Below the pieces are notes generated by a model, which was not told where the DNA came from, made no database searches, and saw nothing but the letters and a program-made list of their open reading frames with translations. A stretch of 63,208 bases of DNA, filler included, from Reclinomonas americana ATCC 50394 (lineage: Eukaryota), in assembly GCA_048213135.1 (NCBI GenBank). It is 7 parts of 4 records of this genome, joined end to end, with 100 filler letters (N's around TTAATTAATTAA, not from the genome) between each part and the next. Parts side by side here need not be neighbours in the genome. Positions count along the whole stretch, not along the records: positions 17,375 to 30,358 come from PS015305.1; 6 more parts are not named here. One strand, written 5' to 3'. This document shows positions 17,533-50,655 of this stretch, piece by piece. A program made the translations under genes and the position numbers. Within the stretch, counting starts at the first letter, position 1, and each line of letters opens with the position of its first letter.

Positions 17533-18532
17533 CCTCTTGGACAAACGGAAATCCCTGACACGTCGAGGAACACAGATCAAAACTCTTGGTCATTTGCGAC
17601 ACCGCCGCCTCGTGCCGCTGCTGGGGTACGCCATTCGCACCGAGCCGGTAACGGAACAGTGCCTCGTTTACAAGGCCATGAAGTGCGTTTGCACTCATGT
17701 CTTCCCCTTCGCTCGCTTTCTTCCGATCACCACCACTGAACCCCTCCATTCACAGTCGTCTCGATCTGGAGGCCCGGCTGATGCGCTGTCCACCGGGAGG
17801 TGAGCCACTGACGGTGCTGCAGCGCGTGCAAATCGCACTGGGCATCACAGAGGGTGTGCTCTTTTTGCACAAGGTATGAAGCACACTGCCAGTCAGCAGT
17901 CCACATCAACAGAGAGCTTACCCCTTGCAGCACGACGTGGTGCACCGCGATTTGAAGCCCTCCAACGTGCTGCTCGACGACCGACTGGAGCCGTGCCTGG
18001 CCGACTTTGGTATTGCGCGTATCTTTGACGAGGGCGAGGTAGGAAGGAAAAAAGATTGTCGCGTTCTTTTTCGCGCTGACATCGCACCCTTGCAGTCGCG
18101 CACCACAGCCTCACTAGGCTCCCCCTTCTACGTGGATCCGCTGACACTGCAAACGCGTCGCGTGCGTTTCTCCACCGACATGTACGCGCTGGGCGTCATT
18201 CTGCTGCAGCTGCTAACCGGCCGCAGTGCGCGTGAAGTCGTCGATATTGCTCCGCGGTGGGAACGCGCACTGGCCACGCTCAATGTCAAGGACGAGGCGG
18301 ACGCGGCGGCGGGCGTGTGGGATGAGCAGGTGGCGCGACTCATGCTCGAGCTTGGTGTCACGTTGCGTTGTTGTGCGGGTGTGAAGGGTGTTGTTGGGGG
18401 CGAACGAGGTCTCATGTCGGTGACAGGTGCATGTCGCTGTTTGTTGATTCGCGACCGTCAGCGATGGACGCGTACGCGGTGATGCAGCGGGCGAGGGATT
18501 TGTGTGGTGGTTACACGAGGGAGATTCTATGA
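14046..18532 (+). CDS. WD40 repeats + coiled coil + RLK/Pelle(IRAK)-type Ser/Thr kinase (WD40 middle part on inverted contig 14620-15354)
   Basis: WD40: GHTAAVHQLAVS..GDKQVRVF, IVSGSEDRTVRVWE. Kinase: YSWEELQAVTESF, IGEGGQGKVY, VAIK, LRHRRLVPLLGY, CLVYKAM, HRDLKPSNVLLD, DFG, GSPFYVDP, DMYALGVILLQLLTGR, RPS. Linkage across gaps inferred. Confidence 0.8.
14620..15354 (-). CDS. WD40 repeat exons (gap-bounded contig, likely mis-oriented part of the WD40-kinase gene)
   Basis: GHTSSVLALAM..SGSFDNTIRQWN, AHSNAVFALS..SGSNDKSIAVWR, RHTSVVICVALS, ARVWDV..GHSESVT; open at both ends. Confidence 0.8.
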
Positions 18533-20141: not shown

Positions 20142-21788
20142 ATGCCCTTCTGTTAGTAATAGTGTGTGTTAGTAGTGTGTGATGATACAAAATTAGGTGT
20201 TTTTTGTTATGGATAGAGCGTGTGTGTGTGCGATGTGGAGCTCGCTGCGGCTGTGTGTGTGAATCTATAGTACGGCTTGGTGAGCGGGTGAATGGGCGAC
20301 TTGAGACGCAACAGAATATATGCGTTGATGGCGAGTGTGATATCGAAGATTTCCACGAGTGGGCGGTTTGAAAATAGAATCTTTGCTGGTGAGCTGTGTG
20401 GAAGCGTGGCGACTGCCGTGTGGTAGTGCGCTGTGGTGGTGACGCGGAGTCTGGCATGTGCGTGTGGTCAGAGTCACTGGCTCGTGAAAGAACACTGGAG
20501 TGGGCGAATACAAAGTTTTCGGTGCGGTATTGCCCGATCCAAATTGGGATACGAATCCGGATCGGGATGCCTTTGTGGCGGCAACAGCAACTGCAGTAAT
20601 TCAAACGACGACACAGCTGCGTCAAGATCGACATCTTGCGTGGGCACGAGCACCGGAAAGTGAGACATCTCGGAAGAAGTCCAAGTGTCAAAGTTTGTAA
20701 TTGACGTGGACAGAAACGCTGCGCATGCGCAGCGGCTCGTGATCTTGCATTACAGCACTCACCGCGTGCATGCAAGTGCGTGTGGAATAGAGTACGGACC
20801 AGGAAGTCTTATTTGTTTCGTGTCCTGCAGCGCGGTCAGTCAGAACGGATTTTGAAACCTTGATGAGCCAGAGAATTGTCGTTGGCGGAGCTGACTCGAG
20901 TCAAAAGGGACGTGCCGCTGAACTGCGCGGGTCTGCCGACCTGGACCCGGAAGACCGCAAGACGTGCAACGAGATCGTTCATTCGGGAGACACCGTCGGC
21001 CAGTTCAGCAAAACTTCCAACTCATTCCGCGATCCCTCTAACACATTCGACTCGAAGGCGGAGGCTGCTCTTGTTGCCATCGAGAAAAAGCATCGTTGAC
21101 ACAACCCGCACTGTGCAGCTTTGTGAAGCCATGGCCATGCCACTTGATCGTGATGCCGGCGCCGCGGCCGGCTAGACTTAGAGCTCTCTGCCTCCTCTTC
21201 TCCTGCATCATCTAGTTCACCAACTCAACGAGAATGTGTAATACAAGACAGCCTTTCTTTGTTATGTGGATCTGAACGCTTGAAGAGCAGCGCTGCGCAG
21301 TGTGATGAGAAAGTATCCAAAGTACACNNNNNNNNNNNNNNNNNNNNAGGCACTGATCATGAAATCATGCATGTGAGAGGATGAATCGTGCGTCGCATCA
21401 TTAACGTAGACAGAGAACTGCGCCACAAGCACACAAGGAGATGAATCACATAGGGTAGGAGAGAAAGCGGTTGCATTGTATATTTCTCCGGAGCATGTGT
21501 GTTCAGAGAGACCTTGTTGTTCCCAGTCTTTCCTTTCGCAGAAGAATACACTGAGTGCCAGCGATGCGTCCACGCCAGAGTGTCAGACGTTCCGCGTACA
21601 GCGCTGTCAATCGACTTCGTCAAACCTCCTACGAGAGCGCAGCGCATGCGAACGCAGCGCAAAAGAGAATTGGCGATCACTGGTAGATGCTCATTGTTGT
21701 ATTTGTCAGTGAAGTTTCTATTCTATGGTGATGTTGTGGACTTGGCCACCAAGGCAACTGCAGCTGTCCGCTCTTGCAATGTGCAGCC

Positions 21789-24700
21789 TCATCGCACGCG
21801 CACATATATTCTCGGCAGATGCTCCGGTCCGTCCTCCTCGTACTCCATGCGCATGCCTTCCGGGTCACGTTTCCTCACCACAGAGCCATCACTGCAATAA
21901 AATCACCATGCGCGTGAGTGAGACAAATCAATTCACCGCTGCGGTGCGGTGCAGACGGCTACTACGCAACGGTGCCGACACCAAGAACTCAATAATGCCA
22001 GACGGGTCCACGTGCAACTTGTTCTTCTTCACCACATTCTCCACGAGCTCAAGCAGTGGCTTGTCCAGCTCTCCGCGGCCACCGCGAGCCCTGAAGGCGA
22101 AGAACCATATCACGCAGTCCTCTCGCGCCACCGAGATTGCCTCGATGTTCAGCTCGTGCTCCGCCTTCATCTTGTCCAGGAACTGCCAGGAATGCACACG
22201 CGTACGCAGAACATCTGTGAGAACGACTGTATGCACTATACAACCGGCTCCCACCACCGATCGCGATGAACCTGCTGCAGCGTCAAACCACGCGCGTCCA
22301 CATGCACGTTGTCCCACAGCGTGAACGTGTGGTCGCCACTCGCACCCTTGTAGCTCCACTGCACGTTGCGAAAGAAAAAGGCACACCAATCAGTCATAAC
22401 ATTACCGCTCCAGAAAATAGTCCAACATACACTCTCACCTTCGGCGCCTCCATCAGCTCCTGCACGGTGAACATCAGCGTGCCGAGGTTGACCGTCGACT
22501 CGCGAATTGCCGAGTTTGGCCGGCCAGACCAGATCTGCACCCAGCAGCAGCAGCAGTCAGTCAACCGGAAAGTGCCAGCTCGGCGCAACTGAAAATCCAC
22601 TCACCTTCAGCATCTCGAAGCTCGCATAGCCGCAGATCAAAGCCGTGCTCGTCACAGTGGCCGGAATCACGCGACCAGCAACGAGCTTGACCTTCATGCG
22701 GTCTGCTGTGTCGATGCGGTACATGGTGGCACGAATGTTGGATACGGCCATCAAAAAATCCACGTGGTAGTTGAGGTCGTTGTCCTTCTCGAACTCATCG
22801 GCGGTCACCGCCGGCGAGATGTCGCTCGGCGACGGGAGCGAGCTCAGCAGGGCGTTCGGATCGAACTCCTGCATTAGCGACACGTCACTGGTGTGAGGAA
22901 CTCGACACACACGCGCTCCTATCACACGCTTTACAAACCGCCGAGTTGCTGAACGCCTTCACGTTGACGCGCGAGGCGATCTCCAGCACCAGCGCCTTAC
23001 AACGATAGCTGTCCAGATGAAGCTCCGACGGCACAGCAATGCCGAGAGTCTTGGCACGCAGCGCAGTCGCCGTCACCTGTGCACCAACCCGCCATGAGTA
23101 GGGCAATTGCAACAAGCCAACGACACGTTGTCGTGCACCAGGAACTGCACGTGCAGCGGGTTCGTCGGGTCGAACGGCTGCTCCGTCGGATACCTCTTGC
23201 AACCACTCCAGAATGGCGTGCCTGCGATAATACCCCGAGTCTGTAAGCCACCAAGTCACATGGCAGGCAATGCCGGCACAAGACTCACCGTCACGGTTCT
23301 TGGCATCACGTGGGTACCACGAGTGCCACTGCAATGCCGAGTGCACAAACTCCCTCTCGTACAGGTTGCGCGCCCATGCCACGCAGTCATCCAGAGAGGC
23401 GCAGCGGTTCTCGGCGCTCAGAATGCCAGCCAGCTTGCGGGCAACCTGCGACACACCACATTGACTTCGACGTCAGCATCTCCCCCATTGGCTCCGACAC
23501 ACAAGATCGCCTCAACGCAACATCCACTTGCTCCGTCTCCGGCATCTCCTTCATCTTGTCCAGGAAGGACTGCGGGTTGTTGCGGTACTCGGCCACAGTC
23601 TCTGGACAGTCCACAAAATGCTTGTGGAAGACTAACCAGAGAGCGTACAGGATGCAGTGCTCGATCTGCAATTCGAGGCCGTGTCAGTGCTACAAGTTAA
23701 CACCTTCGAACAGCACAGCGAAGCAACTCACCAGCTGAATGCGAGCAAGAACAAGAAGGGAAAACACATGTGAGATTATTGTTTGGCGAACAGAGTTTCA
23801 GATATCATTCGATGACACACGTACTGCGCACATGACACCACCAACGGTCAGCATGCAACGCACTAGCAAGTCACGCGTACACACGCAAGTTACGTACAGG
23901 GAAGCTGAGTAATGTGTCCTTCTTGGCCGTCGGTGGGTTAACCTCGCGAAAGAAGCCGTAGTTGACAGAAAAATCAGGGATCACAATCTGCAAACGGTGG
24001 CGTGAGACACCGCCAATCGTGACGCACTCCGAAACGCCAGTGAACTCACACAGCTGCGCACAGCAAAGCCTTGTGAGCGAAGGACAACGAGGAAAACCAG
24101 CAGGGAAGAAACACACACCAGTAGCACTTGACGGATTCCGCATTGACCTCAACGAGCGGCTTGCGGAACTGCACGCAGCGGTCGTCGACGTACAGGCGAG
24201 CCTGGCGGTTGTCCAGTGCATTCACCACCATATCCTTGTCCTCCCAGAAGGCACGGTCGAACAGGTCTGACGCCCACACAAAGAGTTTTGACGACAAGGG
24301 TACAGTACATCACATGCATGGCCTGGAATTCTCAACGTACCTTCAGTGGCCGGTGCCACCATCTGCTGCAGTGCCGTGGTGCGCATGTTCGGGTTCATGT
24401 TGCCTGCTTGTTGACATGCGGCTCTTGCCTTGGAGCACTGTTTTTTTTCCATCTCGTAGAGTCAGGCAAGACAGACCGATCAACAGCACGGCACACGTTG
24501 CACGCAACACCGATATGCTGCTGGCGGAACAGGAACTGGCGATTGGGCTTTGCGAACTCAATCGTGTCCATGTCGGCCACAGTGATGGCACCACCGTCGC
24601 TGGCAACAAAAACAAGCAGTGAATCCACAGCACCAAGGAGTACAAAACAGCGGCGACACGAACCCGCAGCCCACGCCCATCATCGCAAAGTCCTTCAGGT

Positions 24701-26974
24701 ACTCGCAACCGAGAGCTGCAGGAAGCAAGCACATCACCAATCAGCAAGCGAGCAACGGAAACACTCGCTTCTTCCTTCTCACATACGCACTCACCACCAG
24801 CGCCGACTAAAAAGATCTTTTGTCGCAGAATGCGCTCCTGTGCAGCCCTGCCAATCACCGCAATCTGTCCGTCGTAGCGGCTTCCAATCGGTGCCAGCTC
24901 AGCCTCCGACAGCGGCTCCTCCGGTAGCACCTCCACAAAGTCCAGGTACATGAGCTGGTGCAGCGGCTGGTACCTCTGCGTCACAGCCTTCTGTGCCTCC
25001 TGCGCTGCAAGAGCTCCCAACACCGACGCCTGTTGTGGGGCAAGGAGTTCAAATCTCGCCTCCAGTCTTACTCTCGTCCTGCCCCCTTTGCAACGCACCA
25101 TCGGGTTCAAGTCGCCCTGCGAGTACAGCGCCAGCTTGCGGACCACGTCCTTGTTCACCTCCTCGAACGGCATCTCCGAGCGCACCGGCACGATCGGCGA
25201 GCCTGGCACAAACTGCACCCGAGTGGCCGCAAAGATCGCCTCCGCCTTTTGCACCACACGCTCCGCCTCGGCCACATGGCCCGGAGTCGGTAGACGACCG
25301 TTCTCGGCCACAAAGTGCGACAGCGCCAAGAAGCCAAAGTGCAGCGACTCCGAGTTGCACGAGAACATCTTTATCAGATCCGACTGCACAATCGGACCCG
25401 GATTCTGCAGCACGTCGCGAAGAGGACGCTGCAACAACAACAACAGGGAAGAGAATGAGCAACACTCGCACAAACTCGGAACGTGATCATTCGCAGTGAG
25501 TGGGCTGACGCAACGAAGGAGAACGGCATCGGCTTCTTCACACCCTTGACAAAGCCACTGCCGCCAAACTCGCCCTCGTGCGGGATCATGCCGATCGAGA
25601 ACGTAGTGCTGTCAATGATGGTGACTTTGAACTCGTTACCGTTCAGACCCTCAATACCGTCGACGTCCTGCACCGACGAGTGTCAGCAACTGGAAGGCAA
25701 TCCACACGCAACACAACACACACAGCACCTTGAACGACACAGTGTCGCCGTCCTGCAGACCGTGGCTCAAGATTTCGTCGGCCACGCGGATGCGCACCAC
25801 ACCCTTCTGTCCGACACTGTGGCCGGCCTCGTCGTACATCGGGATTGCCTCCTGTAGTCACGGCCCGAGTGGTTGTCAGAACACTCCCAAGTTGCTTGTG
25901 AGTGTGGCCTCACACAACGCAACAATCATCTGCACAGGGAGCTCCTGGAACTCCTCGCCGTTCAGATCGTTGCACACAAAACCGTGGCCAAAGTCCGCAA
26001 ACAGCATGGCAAACGGACCTGCGTGTACACGCCCAGTGAGAATTCTCCGTTCCTTCTCTTGGCCTCTAGCCAGCATTACCACTCACCGCGCGACTGTGCA
26101 ATCACCACCTTCAGGCCCTTGTCGTGGCACCAGTCGGCGAGCGCCAGCAGATCGGCATCAATGTTAGTGTCACAGATCTTGTGCCAGTACAATGTGAGCG
26201 ACAATGGATAAGAGACAGGCCAAGGGAAAGTGAGGGGTACGCACCACTAGGCAGTCGTAGATGGAGCGGCCGTCTGGGTGCAGGTTCTCGGACTTTTTCA
26301 GGAAGTCGAACAGGTCACCAGTCTCTGCACAGCCACGCACATAAGCAAAGTGAAAAGAGAGGGGCTGGAGTGGTAGTGGTACGCACCGAGGTGAGTGTTG
26401 ACAGTCGGGTTGAGCTCGTGTATTCGTGTGAAACAAGCATCGGCGCGGTTCTTGCCAATGTCGTCCTCCGACAGCGCAAACTGTTGTGTGCGTGTGAGAG
26501 AGTGTGATGCAGCGTGTTTGAGCAGCAGTGCACAGGGGGAACCTGCGACGAGAGATCCATGAACGTGGTCACGCGCGTGTCATGCAGCACAATGGTGTCG
26601 ACGCGAGTGTGTTGTCTGCAGGAGCTGGTGCCAAGCATCGCCATGGGCGCACTTCGAGTCAGCATGATGTTCTTGGCTGTGCGTGAAACAGCAGCGAGTG
26701 AGTGAGGAGACTTCATGCTCTCTTCTCTCTCTCTCACGAACCGACTTCTGCGCCCACGCCATTCAGGCCCGACACAATGTACTTGATCCTCTTGAGGGCG
26801 TAGACGTCGCCGCGACCGAAAGACGCAGCGACATGGGAAAACTGTGACACGAGGAGAGGTGTGAGGAGATGATGAGTGTGTGGGAGAGAGAGAGAGAGAG
26901 AGAGAGAACGGGGTGTGACAGTGAACCTTCTCCTCAGCGGCAAGCAGGAAGAGATCGCGATGGCCGGAAGACAT
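21789..26974 (-). CDS. Ubiquitin-activating enzyme E1 (UBA1/UBA6-like), full length, but catalytic Cys replaced by Asp
   Basis: GLNGVGAEV|AKNIML, DLSSQ|FALSEDDIGKNRA, SRYDGQIAVIG, FLVGAG|ALGCEYLK, DMDTIE..NRQFLFR, NALDNRQARLYVDDRC, FEKDNDLNYHVDF..SNIRATMY..AGRVIPA, UFD-like end ..LPRIYVRVR*. More than 20 introns. Confidence 0.92.
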
Positions 26975-27652: not shown

Positions 27653-28507
27653 ATGCTCGCCACCATCATCCGCCGTCGCGTTGCACACATTGTTGCCGCC
27701 CTGAGTGGTGTGGGCGCCACTGCCACTTTCGCCACGTTATGTAGTGCATGCATTGTGCATGAAAGTGACACAAAATGCATGTCAAACACACACGCACATG
27801 CACACACACGCACACTCTTTCTCTCTGTGTGTATGTGTGTGTGCGTTCGTTTGTCTGTTTCTCTCTCTCTCTGTGCAACCTCAGGCATTCGCTGTCTTTC
27901 TTTCGGTTACTCACTGAAGTGTCTGGTACACTCCCTTTCTCACTCACCTTGACTCTCTCTGCAGTCTCATCCTCTCATTGTAGCCCTGCATTCTGCCTCT
28001 CTCTCTCTCTCTCCACTCTCTCATTCATCCATTCTCCCATTATCATCCTGCATTCACTGTCTCTCTCTCTCTCCCTTCTCACACCCTCTTTCACTCTTTG
28101 CAGTGTGACTGCCTCCTCCACGGCCGCTGCCTCGTCGCCTCCAGTGGCGCTCAGCAAGGACGAGTTCCGCCCGTTCACTGTGCAGTCGGTGGACAGAGTG
28201 ACGCACAACACTGTGCGTCTGCGCGTGGCACTGCCGAGCAGTGAGCACGTGTTGGGACTGCATGTGGCCTCGTGCTTGGTGGTGAGTCACACCGGGAAAA
28301 AGAGAGAGGGAAAGAGAGAGAGGGAGAGATACAGTGAATGCACGAGACGGAGAGCATGAAAGCCCGAGTGTGCATTGACAATGCGACTGATACAGCGAAT
28401 GCCTAAGCTGCAGAGGGGACGAGAGACAGTGGATGCCCGAGGCTGCAGAGAGGGGCGGGGAGTCAGGGCTTGCCCGAGACTGTCGACNNNNNNNNNNNNN
28501 NNNNNNN

Positions 28508-28538
<31 letters not shown>

Positions 28539-30477
28539 AGAGAGCACGCCGAGACTGCAGATGGGAGACGAGAGACAGCAGAATGCCGAAGTTGCAGAGG
28601 GCGAGAGACAGCGAATGCCCGAGGCTGCAGAGAGTGACAGAGAGCCTGAGGCTGCAGAAGAGTGGACGAGTAGCAGTGCTGCTTGCGACTGCCGATGGGA
28701 GACAGGGAGGGGCGAGAGACAGCGTATGCCGAACTGCAGAGAGATGCCGCTGAGTGGGAGTGCCAGTGAAAGCTTGTAGCTGCAGGGTGAGAGAGAGAGA
28801 GTGAATGCCTGATGCTGTACAAGATGGAATGCCTGGTTGCTGAGNNNNNNNNNNNNNNNNNNNNNNNNNNNNNNNNNNNNNNNNNNNNNNNNNNNNNNNN
28901 NNNNNNNNNNNNNNNNNNNNNNNNNNNNNNNNNNNNNNNNNNNNNNNNNNNNNNNNNNNNNNNNNNNNNNNNNNNNNNNNNNNNNNNNNNNNNNNNNNNN
29001 NNNNNNNNNNNNNNNNNNNNNNNNNNNNNNNNNNNNNNNNNNNNNNNNNNNNNNNNNNNNNNNNNNNNNNNNNNNNNNNNNNNNNNNNNNNNNNNNNNNN
29101 NNNNNNNNNNNNNNNNNNNNNNNNNNNNNNNNNNNNNNNNNNNNNNNNNNNNNNNNNNNNNNNNNNNNNNNNNNNNNNNNNNNNNNNNNNNNNNNNNNNN
29201 NNNNNNNNNNNNNNNNNNNNNNNNNNNNNNNNNNNNNNNNNNNNNNAAACACAGTGAATGCTGAGACTGCGGCGCGAGAGGGAATGCTTCAGGATGCAGG
29301 GTGAAAGCAACAGTGAATGCATAAAGCTGCGGAGACAGTGAAAGCCCGAGTTTGCAGAGAGAATCAGTGACTCTTGGGGCTCCACGAGAGCAGCGTTTGA
29401 CTGTCGTAATCATCACGCTCACTCTCCACTCCTTCCCTTCGCTGCAGGTCCGCGGCCCCGTTGGCCCCAACAACGAGATGGTCGTCCGCCCGGTGAGCAC
29501 CTCCTTTCCCATTCCACTCCTCTCTCCCCTCCTCTCTCACACCCCGCCCCACGCAGTACACTCCCACCTCCGAGTCCGACGCTCGCGGCTTCTTCGACCT
29601 GGTGATCAAGGAGTACCCCGATGGCAAGCTGACGCCGTACCTGGCGCACCTCAAGCCCGGCGACACGCTGGAGGCCAAGGGTACATGGGCACGGTATTTT
29701 ACCCTCACCTGCAGTTCGTCTCCAACTCATCTGTGTGCCGCACGCGCGTGACAGGTCCGTTCCCCAAGATCCAGTACACGGCCAACATGAAGAAGAAGAT
29801 TGGTGAGCGACGAATGTGCTTCTGTCTGGTGTCTTATACTGCCACTCACGTTGGTTTCGTTGACAGGCATGGTTGCTGGTGGCAGTGGTGAGTGATCATT
29901 CGCATGCCTGCATCAATTGTCGTCGTGCAGTGTCGCCAACTGCGTGCACGATGCAGGCATCACCCCGATGATTCAGGTCATTCAGGAGATTGTGCGCAAC
30001 CCCGAAGACCGTACCGAGGTCACCTTGGTGTTTGCCAACCAGTCGGTGTGTGGTTCTCGTGCGCATGCATTCATTGCTTTTCTATTTCTCACGCGATGTG
30101 TGTGTGCAGGAGGCCGACGTGATTCTGAAGGCATGCGTTTGAGTCGTCGTGAGCGCCTCATCTTGAGAATCCTTCTCACCTCCTGCGTTTTTGCCAGGAC
30201 TACCTCGACGGCCTGGCCAAAAAGCACTCTCGCGTTGCGTTTTCGTACTCGCACCGCACCTCTGATTCGTTCTCGTGCCAACACCCGACCGTTTGCTCGA
30301 CAGCTGAACGTTGTCTACATCATCGATCGCTCCAAGAACCCGGCCGAGTGGAAGGGCCNNNNNNNNNNNNNNNNNNNNNNNNNNNNNNNNNNNNNNNNNN
30401 NNTTAATTAATTAANNNNNNNNNNNNNNNNNNNNNNNNNNNNNNNNNNNNNNNNNNNNGCGCACTTCCCTCCCACCA

Positions 30478-31610: not shown

Positions 31611-34600
31611 CTTCTTCTTCTCCCTGTTCTTCTTCTTCTCCTTGCGCTTGTTGCCCTTCTACTCCACCTTTTCTTTCCTCTTGTACTTCTGGTCACACTC
31701 ACCTGCCACAGCTCCTGCAGCTCGCCAAGAGTCAGAATCGGGCGGAGGAACGGCATGCGCGGTTTTGTGGCCTCGAGCTTGAGCAACTCGTTCTTGACGA
31801 CCTCGGGGATGTGTTGCTGCACCTCGGGCCTGTCGAGTTTCATCATTTGCACCTGCGAGACTTGCATCGCATGACCGTGCCCACGCGAACCATGCCCGTG
31901 TGCAATCGGTGGCACCTGCGACGAGTGCGATCAGTCAGATGCATCCACACCCCGTCTCCCCCTCCCTCACATGTCCGACACACACCGCCATCTGATATCG
32001 CATCATCTCACTGGTGAAGCGCTCGTCGTAGGTGCGACGCCACGTCGCCATGGCGGGGAAGTACGCATCACGAGCCTTGCGATACTCGGCACGATGATCG
32101 CGAACAAAGTTGGCCACCATCTCCAACGCACGAGTGTGCATCGGTCGCATGTAGGGAATGAGGGCTGCGAAATCCTGGCACGGATCGCCACCCGCCATAC
32201 TCATACGGCGCGCTGCATGCGATGCTCTTCTCGGCATCTCCTCCGCTGCGATTCGCACCGTCCGTTTGGACGTGGAGCTGCGCGCGCGACACCAAAGTTT
32301 TTCAGCAATCGGTCGTCATCCACCGAAACACCTAAAGGGACGCACGATTTGGCAGGCTTCTCTTTCTTTTCTCCGACGGCGGGAGCCTCGGCCAGCACTG
32401 TGCTGCCGCGCTGTCCACGCCGTTCTCCAGACGCGCCGGCAACATTACTTGCTCGACGGCCGATAATGGCCTGCGGCAACAGCTCGCCACTCTGTGATGA
32501 TTGGAAAACAACACTGGCACGGTGGTTGGTCGAGGCAAATCGTCCCTCCGCCTGCATATGCACATGTCAGAGCGTGAGGCATGTGGTACTGCACACATAG
32601 AGAGTGTGTTTACCAACACATACCGGTGAACGAGCTGGTCGAGAGACCGGCATGAGTGCACTGTGCGGCTTGAGCATGACCGTGAGGAACTGTCGGAAGT
32701 ACCACGACCACTGGCACAGCATGAGGTCGCGGCGCGCCTTGGTGATGGCCGACAGGTCGTGCATGTTTCGTTGGATGCGATACACTGCACGACGACAGGC
32801 GAAATGTGATGTGAGCCTACCTTGCTAGAAGCCCTTGTGCGGACATGGTTCTCCACTCACCGTGCAGCATGTACTGCTGAATGCGATGCCGCACCTCCGA
32901 GGCGGCAAAGAGCGTTCGCAGGAAGGAAATGATGCGCGCAACCATTCGACGCTTGCGGAACACACGACGACCAATTGCCAGTTGCAATGCAGCCCTGCAC
33001 ACAGTTGTGTTTGAGCTACGATGACTAAATGGTTACGCTGAAAGCGTGAAACCACTGGCGGAACCTGTGCAACACGGCGGCAAGACGGCGCCCACGGAGC
33101 CGACTACGCAAGAGTACCCGAGGGTAGAATAGCCTCTGGATGACGAGAGCCGCATGCTCCAGGCGACGACGGCGTGCAAGTGCAATCCGTGACATCTGCA
33201 ACACAATTTTTGTAAGTGGACGGTTCTTCTGCTCGTGCATCTCAAATATGACGCACCCGTAATCGCCCCGCCCAGTGCAGGACTCGCGGAAAGAGCTCGG
33301 CAAAGTACAGCCAGTACATTTGCCGGCGTTGTCGCTCATTCTGTGTCTGGATGGTCTCCTTGCGCTCCGACGCCTGTGGGAGGTGATGCTTGTAAGCACA
33401 GAGAGACATAGAGAGACTCAATCCTCAGAGACAACAAGGACCTCCAACATGCGGTACTCGAGTTCCTGTCGCATGCGTTCCTGCTTCTCCGCGCGCTCCT
33501 GTTGCAGTTGGGTGTGGCGGCCGAGCACCTTGGCCATGCGATCCTCCTCCATCAAGCGCTGTTCAACGGCAGCAGCGTGCATGAGATGATCACCGAGAAA
33601 ACCATCCAACCCACCCGTTCCAAACACGCACCGCCTGTTCACGTTGTTCGTCGCGGACTTCTGGATGAACCGCCTCGAATTTGTTCTCCTTGACAAAACA
33701 CTTGCCCTCTCGAATGCGATTTTCACGCTTCTCTTTTCGTTCCTCCTCGTACGTCTCTGTGCGTAGTGAAGATGAGTGTGGCTGCATGAGCATTCTGGCG
33801 GCAGTATCTACAAGAGACCACGAAACTGCACCGCTGGAACAGCTGCACAACCTCTTCTGGGTGCGCCGAAATGTCGGCCAATCGCCTCTGCAGTTTCTCT
33901 GAAGTGGTAATGGTTGTCGCAGGTTTTGGTTTTGTTTGCGTGCGCGTCACTGCCGGCGCTGACAAGCCACGACGCCGTGTTTGTCGAGCCCAGGCCAGCA
34001 AGACATCGACATCTGCGCGTCGATGGGTATCAGCGTGTGCGACAGCAAGAGTGCAACGTGCGGCACTGTCATCTCGCAACTGTCTTCGAGCTGTGCTCCT
34101 TCGGGCAACGTGGGAACTGTGTCGTGCGAGAAGCTTGCAGTCGCCGCCGCCTGCCATGATGCGTGAGAAGCATGCACACCATGCGTACAGGAGACGACAT
34201 GTCCCATTACCTGCTCTTGCCTGGTGGCAGCCGCCTTGCGCATGCGATTCTTGATGGCGGAGATCTCGTCGGAGGACTTGTTGGTCGATCTTGGCGCTTC
34301 GCGCTCGGCAGCCTCGGCTTGCTTTGCACGACGAGCCAGCTGATGACGAGAGCAACAGTGAGTTTCAGTCACACACACACTCACAGTAGTTTCTCAAATG
34401 GCTCGTACCTGTGCGGCTTCGGCCATCTGCGTCATGGCCTGTGACACCGGATCCAGTGTGGCCATGTCTAGTACCTGCGTGACCTCGGAGTCGAACAGAC
34501 CACCCGGAACCGGACCACGGCCTGATGTCATGCTTTTCGGTGAGCCAACAATTCACACCAATACAACACGGAGACACACACGCAGCCGCACCACTCTTCA

Positions 34601-49273: not shown

Positions 49274-49599
49274 NNNNNNNNNNNNNNNNNNNNNNNNNNN
49301 NNNNNNNNNNNNNNNNNNNNNNNNNNNNNNNNNNNNNNNNNNNNNNNNNNNNNNNNNNNNNNNNNNNNNNNNNNNNNNNNNNNNNNNNNNNNNNNNNNNN
49401 NNNNNNNNNNNNNNNNNNNNNNNNNNNNNNNNNNNNNNNNNNNNNNNNNNNNNNNNNNNNNNNNNNNNNNNNNNNNNNNNNNNNNNNNNNNNNNNNNNNN
49501 NNNNNNNNNNNNNNNNNNNNNNNNNNNNNNNNNNNNNNNNNNACGTCAGCATCCGCTGCGTGCGAGACGATGCAGAGAAAGCGGGCGCGACGAGGGGAC

Positions 49600-50655
49600 C
49601 TTTTGATGAGAAGCACCCAGTCGGGTCGATTGGGGAGGAACTTGCAGGAGGAGAAGCCGCGACGGGGAACCACCGAGCCAACGTGTTGCACGTTGATCTT
49701 CTTGAAGCTTTCGTCGGTGGAGAGCACCACGTTGGAGCCCTGGTGACAATCGCTCATGAGAATCGTGACAACGAACAGCTTGTGTCTCTCTTGTGAAGCG
49801 TACCTTTTCCAGATCAGTCTCCTCGGTGTAGGGGTCGGTGGAGACTCGCCGAGGGAAAAAGTACCACTGCCGACGATGTGGATTCCAGCATACTAACGCA
49901 ACAAGAATGAGGCACACGCGAGCGAGAGAAAGTCGACCAAGAGCAACGTGCGCGTTACCGGCTTCGTGAATCATGTATCCCGGCCGACTGGTGCCGGTGG
50001 CCTCGCGTAGTCTGTCGTAGATGCTGATCCAGTTGTGGTGTTGCACGCGGCCGTGCGCGTTGACCGACTTGGTCCACATGAGACCGGTGGATGTCACCGC
50101 ACCGGTCTTTGCGTCAATGTACTCCTTGCCTTGCGAGCCGACGATCAGCTCGCCGTCTTTGACAGACGCCCATTCTATCTTGAAACCCTGCGAACAAGTA
50201 ATGTACACGTTAGCGACCACGCACGCACACTGTGCTTGCTTGACTATTTTGTCGCACCTTTGACTGATGGCCGTCACCGTCGGCCAACACATACCGCGGC
50301 ACGGCAACCACACTCTTGACGTGCCCATCCGTGGTGCGCTTCTGCACCAAGTCGAACAGAATACCCGTGCGATCGTCGCCGGCCAGCAGCTCTCCGCGAT
50401 ACCACGCCAACTCGGACAACTCCATGCCGCGCCCGGCCTCGTTGTGTTCACTCAAAACCGGCACCTTGCAGCACACAAAGAAAACGTCAGCAACAGCAGC
50501 AAAGCGCAACATACACGGTGGGGAGTCGGGGCATGCGGCCGTACCTCGCCATCCTCGTTCAGTGGCACCCATCGAATGGCAGGCGGCGATTGCGCCAGAT
50601 CCAAGAATCCGTACTTGAGCATTGATCGGAATCGTCTCCGTTTCTCATCCTGCAC
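49600..50655 (-). CDS. CANT1: Calcium-activated nucleotidase/apyrase, central exons (gap-bounded contig)
   Basis: GRGMELSEL, DDRTGI, LADGDG..K|GFKIEWASVKD, VGSQGKE, PGYMIHEA, WYFFPRRVS, RGFSSCKFLP. Confidence 0.93.

Follow-up and report, generated by a model that had tools for sequence, protein, structure and literature searches.

The closest described relatives of the gene reported here are the ubiquitin-activating enzymes (E1s) of the UBA1 type, single-chain proteins in which an inactive adenylation domain, the FCCH, a four-helix bundle (4HB), an active adenylation domain, the SCCH and the UFD follow one another, and in which the catalytic Cys that forms the thioester with the ubiquitin-like protein (UBL) lies in a P-x-C-T-L-K-x-F-P loop. 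Proteins of ThiF fold without catalytic Cys or nucleotide site, playing structural or regulatory roles, also belong to this family, as NAE1/APPBP1, SAE1/AOS1 and the inactive adenylation domain of UBA1 illustrate, and to our knowledge the noncatalytic members are known only as half-size regulatory subunits. For the E2s (with the UEV proteins) and the deubiquitinases, dead-enzyme relatives are well known. The present study concerns a window of 63,208 nucleotides (nt), filler included, from the jakobid protist Reclinomonas americana ATCC 50394 (assembly GCA_048213135.1), made of seven parts of four records joined end to end, along which all positions are counted. On its minus strand, at 21789-26974, lies the gene of a full-length E1 of the UBA1 type in which the position of the catalytic Cys encodes Asp.

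The position in question falls in exon 16 of the gene (23898-23987, minus strand), which translates to IVIPDFSVNYGFFREVNPPTAKKDTLLSFP and carries the crossover loop and the Cys loop; because an acceptor (CAG/ATT) and a donor (CCT/GTACGT) flank its two ends, this interval is exactly one exon. The Asp codon is GAC at 23916-23918 (gtc on the plus strand), as a first-pass annotation of the sequence had read it, and both the translation and an alignment bear this reading out. When the spliced protein was aligned with MAFFT to 177 full-length E1s of 940-1210 residues collected by protein database searches, the Asp fell in the thioester column, which holds Cys in 175 of the 178 sequences, the exceptions being the Reclinomonas gene (D) and two proteins discussed below, P0069 (R) and P0092 (S). 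The column itself is anchored by the nearest full-length relative, P0170, whose Cys aligns there with Cys632 of human UBA1 (PDB chain 9mc4_A). Instead of the usual loop around a catalytic Cys, the Reclinomonas protein reads KKDTLLSFP, against KSCT[LI]K.FP in P0170 and in two further relatives, P0074 and P0058, so that the Ser, the Cys and the Lys of this loop are all replaced, and two residues are absent between SFP and the invariant IEH of IEHC. The change from Cys to Asp requires two base changes and is accompanied by altered adjoining residues and other altered active-site motifs, which rules out a single sequencing slip, in agreement with what had been proposed at first. We also searched for an alternative exon restoring the PxCT motif: a six-frame regular-expression scan of the 63-kilobase (kb) window returned no Cys-bearing exon, its one match, at 33667, being unrelated, and the two introns flanking exon 16 (23988-24114 and 23666-23897, minus strand) encode nothing E1-like.

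The residues expected to surround the nucleotide have been described for the Uba1 of S. pombe. In the portion of Hann et al. 2019 (PMC6681703) that we consulted, which also mentions the pseudosymmetric inactive domain of UBA1, the ATP phosphates are coordinated by Arg22, Asn471, Arg474 and Lys487, the Mg is held by Asp537 and the nucleoside by Asp463, Met464 and Leu536. The same portion of that paper indicates that the N471A mutant forms no E1~ubiquitin thioester, that C593A is inactive and that the SUMO E1 R21A, with the equivalent Arg-to-Ala change, is unable to form the adenylate. Like human UBA1 (PDB 9mc4/6dc6) and S. pombe Uba1 (PDB 4ii2), the Reclinomonas E1 has the single-chain architecture, the length and the ThiF, E1_FCCH, E1_4HB and UBA_E1_SCCH domains, and it retains the glycine loop GAGALG, the DMD of ADMD, the NRQ, the phosphate-binding Lys and NALDN; all the elements of the nucleotide pocket (GxGxxG, DMD, the Arg of NRQ, the phosphate Lys and the Asp of NALDN) are thus in place. 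Unlike these enzymes, it has Asp at the position of Cys632/Cys593, His at the Arg finger, Lys at the equivalent of Asn471, ADMD for TDMD, EVNA for ESGT, two residues fewer before IEH and a C-terminus that stays under the Pfam cut-off for UFD. Both ligands of the gamma-phosphate, the Arg finger and the first Asn of SNLNRQ, are missing: the first-pass readings of FSHV for YSRQ and of IEFAKPNRQ for IEKSNLNRQ were confirmed, as was the retention of GAGALG and NALDN in an unbroken frame. By the spacing of the motif DMDxIEKSNLNRQ, we infer that Asn471 is the residue now Lys and Arg22 the residue now His. Two of the four phosphate ligands would then be altered with the remaining pocket kept, and the Reclinomonas E1 is predicted to be unable to form an E1~UBL thioester.

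These changes are spread over several exons, all described here on the minus strand and, unless another source is given, placed by the spliced alignment. In exon 2 (26742-26841), where the inactive adenylation domain begins, FSHV replaces YSRQ/QSRA, with the His codon of the Arg-finger position at 26833-26835; the aligned block reads LYSRQL in the consensus, AQSRAA in the relatives and KFSHVA in Reclinomonas. The glycine loop is divided between exon 11, which ends with its first half, and exon 12 (24664-24715, aLGCEYLKDFAMMGVGCg), which carries the retained second half. Exon 13 (24509-24599, DGGAITVADMDTIEFAKPNRQFLFRQQHIG), matched by Pfam ThiF, has the Thr-to-Ala change of TDMD at codon 24575-24577 and the replacement of S-N-L by A-K-P at 24545-24553, its Lys codon being 24548-24550, in a motif whose first-Asn column is N in 172/172 canonical sequences. 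Exon 14 (24341-24437, CSKARAAC...) keeps the phosphate-binding Lys (codon 24429-24431), another column that is uniform (K in 172/172) in the canonical sequences. Exon 15 (24115-24266; Pfam ThiF, 4.7e-10) keeps NALDN, with the Asp codon at 24211-24213, has EVNAES in place of E[SA]GT, with the N-A codons at 24139-24144, and ends in KCYWC.

The whole gene was modelled with a spliced protein-to-DNA dynamic programme, P0170 being run against 27300-21500, and three places were adjusted by eye: the start exon was added, the acceptor of exon 3 was moved, which restored AKNIMLT, and the donor of exon 8 was set after SFK. The resulting model has 25 exons and 1092 codons, from an ATG at 26974-26972 to a TGA at 21791-21789, over 3279 nt with no internal stop, GT-AG borders at all 24 introns and guanine-cytosine (GC) contents of 0.60, 0.39 and 0.77 at the three codon positions. 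Introns are short, 21 of the 24 measuring 61-89 nt; exon 16 is flanked by the longest pair, of 127 and 232 nt, and one of 34 nt at 22934-22901 is doubtful. Exon 1 (26927-26974, MSSGHRDLFLLAAEEK) is a proposed start, in frame with exon 2 and with a GT donor after it. For exon 3 (26543-26676, AKNIMLTR...VLHDTRVTTFMDLSSQ), the acceptor is uncertain, the automatic model having taken 26624, and it was chosen because AKNIMLT matches the AKNVILT of the relatives, a choice that implies a 16-residue insertion. The remainder of the inactive adenylation domain and the FCCH occupy exons 4-9 (25515-26480; Pfam E1_FCCH on 25374-25682), namely exons 4-6 at 26480-26387, 26324-26245 and 26177-26087 and exons 7-9 at 26018-25924, 25851-25729 and 25667-25515. 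Exons 10 and 11 (25428-25099 and 25029-24795; Pfam E1_4HB, 1.5e-10) bring the four-helix bundle and the start of the active adenylation domain. After exon 16, the SCCH and the return to the adenylation domain are encoded by exons 17-21 (22605-23665), with Pfam UBA_E1_SCCH on three pieces: exons 17-19 at 23665-23499, 23416-23289 and 23221-23139, and exons 20-21 at 23076-22935 and 22900-22605. The divergent domain at the UFD position and the stop lie on exons 22-25 (21789-22534), at 22534-22439, 22358-22272, 22182-21971 and 21891-21789.

Pfam scans of the reverse-strand pieces of open reading frame returned ThiF (twice, at or above the cut-off), E1_FCCH, E1_4HB and UBA_E1_SCCH (three pieces), and exon 16 therefore belongs to a UBA1-type E1 gene. 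The C-terminal E1_UFD match was sub-threshold (E=0.0067, 17.5 bits vs a cut-off of 25). The order of domains is that of UBA1, the protein being collinear with the whole of P0170, with a weak UFD; no E1_UFD match was found at E<=0.001 in P0170 or P0074 either. The match of P0170 to human UBA1 spans residues 23-1033 (E=2e-184). No second E1 gene is present within the 63-kb window.

The search for relatives placed the Reclinomonas E1 in a small group. P0170 is an unnamed Logan protein of 1098 residues, identical to the Reclinomonas E1 at 513/1023 positions (50%), and is probably the product of a transcript, since its contig of 3466 nt leaves no space for introns. P0074 and P0058 both come from Spironema sp. 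BW2, a hemimastigote represented in EukProt. A fourth sequence, P0016, is a 118-residue fragment from ENA, 55% identical over 93 residues; it has the same unusual insert in the four-helix bundle, and its homology ends exactly at an intron of the Reclinomonas gene, the 69-nt intron between exons 10 and 11. For the phylogeny, we used a quick IQ-TREE search (LG+G4, 1000 columns) on 104 rows chosen from 178 by discarding each that shared 62% identity or more with a retained row. The Reclinomonas protein grouped with P0170 with a support of 100 in the Shimodaira-Hasegawa-like approximate likelihood ratio test (SH-aLRT), P0074 and P0058 joined with 97, and the clade of four obtained an SH-aLRT of 100 with a stem of 0.33. 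The four members form a distinct divergent branch of E1s. It is characterised by an AQSRAA N-terminus, a PD..NYGF crossover loop, a KSCT Cys loop and QY after IxHC; the Reclinomonas protein shares the crossover loop (PDFSVNYGF.EVNPP, near-identical to the PDFSINYGF.EVNPP of Spironema) and differs by LY vs QY after IEHC, where the Y is common to both, by His for the N-terminal Arg and by KKDT in the Cys loop. Together, the Reclinomonas E1 and its relatives have QY/LY where ordinary E1s carry QW, and S for the G of LGTKG.

P0170, P0074 and P0058 all keep the thioester Cys, the Arg finger, SNLNRQ and the G-T of ESGT, and the Reclinomonas E1 keeps none of these. Because the three relatives keep the Cys, its loss is specific to the Reclinomonas lineage. 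The Cys-less E1 is no lone oddity, being the sole Cys-less member of a small divergent clade whose three other known members are Cys-bearing. Across four large protein searches, no orthologue closer than P0170 or P0016 was found. Two of these searches scored only the best 7999 and 8000 candidates by shared words, and absences from such word-prefiltered searches are weak evidence, because only the candidates sharing most words were scored. When the 211-residue piece at 24796-25428 was compared exhaustively with representative proteins, it gave 728 hits, none of them at <=1e-30, with a best score of 103 bits; a profile built from whole proteins and exon pieces was of poor quality and brought in no further member. 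Neither a name nor a publication for this clade came to light, although no literature search was aimed at it.

Two further full-length UBA1 homologues lack the Cys: P0092, from the Protostelium nocturnum transcriptome in EukProt (Ser), and P0069, a predicted protein of Dioscorea zingiberensis at NCBI (Arg), the latter also without NALDN and the glycine loop. Since these two also lack it, Cys-less full-length E1s are probably recurrent. Unlike the Reclinomonas E1, however, both branch among ordinary UBA1s and are more degraded, a difference that we quantified on 138 near-invariant columns (at least 93% invariant in 180 other full-length E1s): the losses number 31 in P0092 and 34 in P0069 vs 18 in the Reclinomonas E1, 9 in P0170, 13 in P0074 and 18 in P0058. 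Ten of the 18 Reclinomonas losses are specific, the three relatives keeping the consensus. Seven of them are changes in the active site (T>A in TDMD; S>A, N>K and L>P in SNLNRQ; G>N and T>A in E[SA]GT; C>D), and those elsewhere are K>R, one gap and I>V. Specific losses thus fall on 7/38 active-site motif columns vs 3/100 other columns (Fisher p=0.0047), the 38 columns (glycine loop, TDMD..SNLNRQFLFR, phosphate Lys, NALDN, ESGT and Cys loop) having been defined after the data were seen. P0170, P0074 and P0058 lose 2/38 motif columns each; of the 180 ordinary E1s, 134 keep all 38, 22 lose one, 14 two, 9 three to five and 1 eight.

Away from the altered residues, the protein is conserved to the degree seen in its Cys-bearing relatives, which bears indirectly on whether it is still constrained. 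Its identity to P0170 is 120/137 at the near-invariant columns vs 513/1023 overall, and the identity per domain is even (0.40-0.63), not below that among the Cys-bearing members. Relative-rate comparisons of the Tajima type gave 114 changes unique to Reclinomonas vs 89 unique to P0170 with P0074 as outgroup (chi2 3.1), and 97 vs 78 with P0058 (chi2 2.1), neither being significant at 0.05. With 25 exons, 24 GT-AG introns, no stop, a GC content of 0.77 at third positions, even domains and no significant acceleration, the open reading frame does look maintained, as had been supposed. The catalytic residues are lost and the reading frame is intact and evenly conserved; such a degraded active site on a conserved scaffold would fit a pseudoenzyme better than neutral decay, short of proof.

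We propose that the gene encodes a maintained, catalytically dead, full-length pseudo-E1 of a rare divergent clade, a reading that we judge about evenly balanced between right and wrong. It would be a real and complete UBA1-type E1 gene that turned catalytically dead in the Reclinomonas lineage, its product making no E1~UBL thioester and probably adenylating poorly or not at all, and the conserved fold would probably be kept for a noncatalytic role, for example the binding of a UBL or an E2 as scaffold, decoy or regulator. It would also differ from the known Cys-less ThiF-fold members of the family, NAE1/APPBP1 and SAE1/AOS1, which are half-size and supply an Arg finger to the catalytic subunit; here the protein is full-length and the Arg finger is lost together with the Cys. 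Several observations weigh against this proposal. The Reclinomonas branch is somewhat longer than that of P0170 (0.50 vs 0.35; for the 114 vs 89 changes, p about 0.08), which may reflect a mild relaxation. When all losses are counted, 8/38 motif columns vs 10/100 others, the concentration in the active site is not significant (p=0.096). The gene model is uncertain at three of its junctions, namely the acceptor of exon 3, the donor of exon 8 and the 34-nt intron. The basic His and Lys might still hold phosphate, and with the glycine loop, ADMD, NRQ, Lys and NALDN kept, adenylation may survive. Finally, the noncatalytic binding role is purely conjectural.

The alternative that survives best is that of a young unitary pseudogene, or of a redundant duplicate in early decay, whose frame and splice sites are intact from recency alone; we find it unlikely, while giving it serious weight. 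The catalytic Cys, the Arg finger and the Asn are all lost, the 2-residue deletion adjoins the Cys loop, the branch is slightly longer than that of the sister P0170 and no protein of the Reclinomonas gene was present in any protein collection searched. The Spironema pair P0074/P0058 shows moreover that duplicates occur in the clade, and a Cys-bearing copy could exist elsewhere in the genome. Against decay, neutral evolution long enough to produce the active-site changes should have yielded more damage elsewhere: there are at least 8 amino-acid changes at near-invariant active-site positions, including a C>D that takes two bases, vs 3 specific losses at the other 100 columns, and not one stop, frameshift or lost splice site across 3.3 kb and 24 introns.

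The next alternative, also raised by the first-pass annotation, is an adenylation-only enzyme, in which the UBL-adenylate would pass directly to the cysteine of an E2 or to a sulfur or amine acceptor with no E1 thioester. Such a direct hand-over has been suggested for MoeB/ThiF-type and some Cys-less prokaryotic E1-like enzymes. The core of the pocket (GAGALG, ADMD, NRQ, phosphate Lys and NALDN) is kept, both altered phosphate ligands became basic (His, Lys) rather than neutral, and the crossover loop is very near that of Spironema. The idea is weakened because the two gamma-phosphate ligands, the Arg of the finger and the Asn of SNLNRQ, have also changed, and single changes at both positions abolish the adenylate or the thioester (SUMO E1 R21A, Uba1 N471A), according to the consulted portion of PMC6681703. 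TDMD has also lost its Thr, SNL its Ser and Leu and ESGT its G-T, and the Cys kept by the relatives shows that the ancestral mechanism relied on this residue. We rate adenylation without thioester as improbable. Among what stands of the initial interpretation is a full-length UBA1-type E1 without catalytic Cys.

A more specific scenario involves the mitochondrial type II secretion system. In the parts of Horvathova et al. 2021 (PMC8134430) available to us, a novel ubiquitin-like protein, Gcp4, co-occurs with this system, and the clade could be an old E1 paralogue retained by a few deep-branching protists with this system (jakobids and hemimastigotes) and the missing activator of the orphan Gcp4, the Reclinomonas copy being now a noncatalytic regulator or adaptor; we regard this as very doubtful. 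The window contains the gene of a GspE-type secretion ATPase (59434-60600, plus strand; Pfam T2SSE, 4.6e-23), near-identical, a few residues and one intron apart, to RaGspE of the supplement of PMC8134430 as consulted. It lies in a eukaryotic, intron-bearing context, with an apparent single intron after ...QVIPDS, and stands 33 kb from the E1 along the joined window, whose parts need not be neighbours in the genome. The accessible parts of PMC8134430 name no E1 among the proteins co-occurring with the system, and the terms 'ubiquitin-activating' and 'UBA1' are absent from its main text and 10 supplementary files as available; 'ThiF' in supplementary file 5, as consulted, corresponded to two chance letter strings inside the sequences of other proteins. 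The presence of GspE in the window, the hemimastigote nature of Spironema and the lack of a named E1 in the parts of PMC8134430 seen are consistent with the scenario. It is opposed by the composition of the best 7999 and 8000 candidates scored, which included no clade member from Naegleria or from another organism with the system; a Naegleria E1 (P0185) scored like ordinary UBA1s. A Cys-less enzyme, moreover, cannot be a working E1 in Reclinomonas.

A relocated catalytic Cys, in KCYWC or IEHC, forming the thioester instead, is hardly credible. The first-pass annotation had offered these nearby cysteines, reading the first motif as KCYCC, which is in fact KCYWC. One extra Cys, the second C of that motif, does stand just ahead of the crossover loop. 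Its first C is common to P0170, P0074 and P0058, which also carry the normal Cys; the second is unconserved, P0074 and P0058 having a Cys three residues later and P0170 none; IEHC/IDHC is present in ordinary Cys-bearing E1s, and no candidate sits on the mobile Cys loop. An artefact of sequence or assembly in a gap-rich draft genome, suggested by the 26 N runs (5068 bases) of the window, is equally hard to credit, as the E1 gene contains no N, the nearest runs being at 21328-21347 and 28488-28507, and the changes consist of numerous independent substitutions that keep the frame and are distributed over four exons, as opposed to indels or one base.

A limited keyword search of the literature returned no description of a naturally Cys-less full-length E1, which is not proof of absence. 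If the proposal of a maintained pseudo-E1 is true, it suggests that a noncatalytic look-alike can regulate the start of a ubiquitin-like cascade. The small Cys-bearing clade is itself a candidate component of an uncharacterised ubiquitin-like pathway among deep-branching eukaryotes. Should the gene prove to be an early pseudogene, the finding would be an ordinary one.

The window holds several other features. Several of its N runs are paired, 44 bases each and 12 bases apart, and may be masking rather than assembly gaps. Upstream of the E1 and on the opposite strand lie exons of a ferredoxin-reductase-type oxidoreductase (29497-30357, plus strand; FAD_binding_6, 5e-12; NAD_binding_1, 4.5e-5). 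Pfam matches further identified pieces of a protein kinase (17880-18479, plus strand), an apyrase (49549-50451, minus strand), a CNOT1 HEAT-repeat protein (53119-53712, minus strand) and a protein with ankyrin repeats and a PH domain (60637-62622, minus strand). Finally, the introns and the intergenic DNA of the window frequently contain (CT)n and (CA)n microsatellites.

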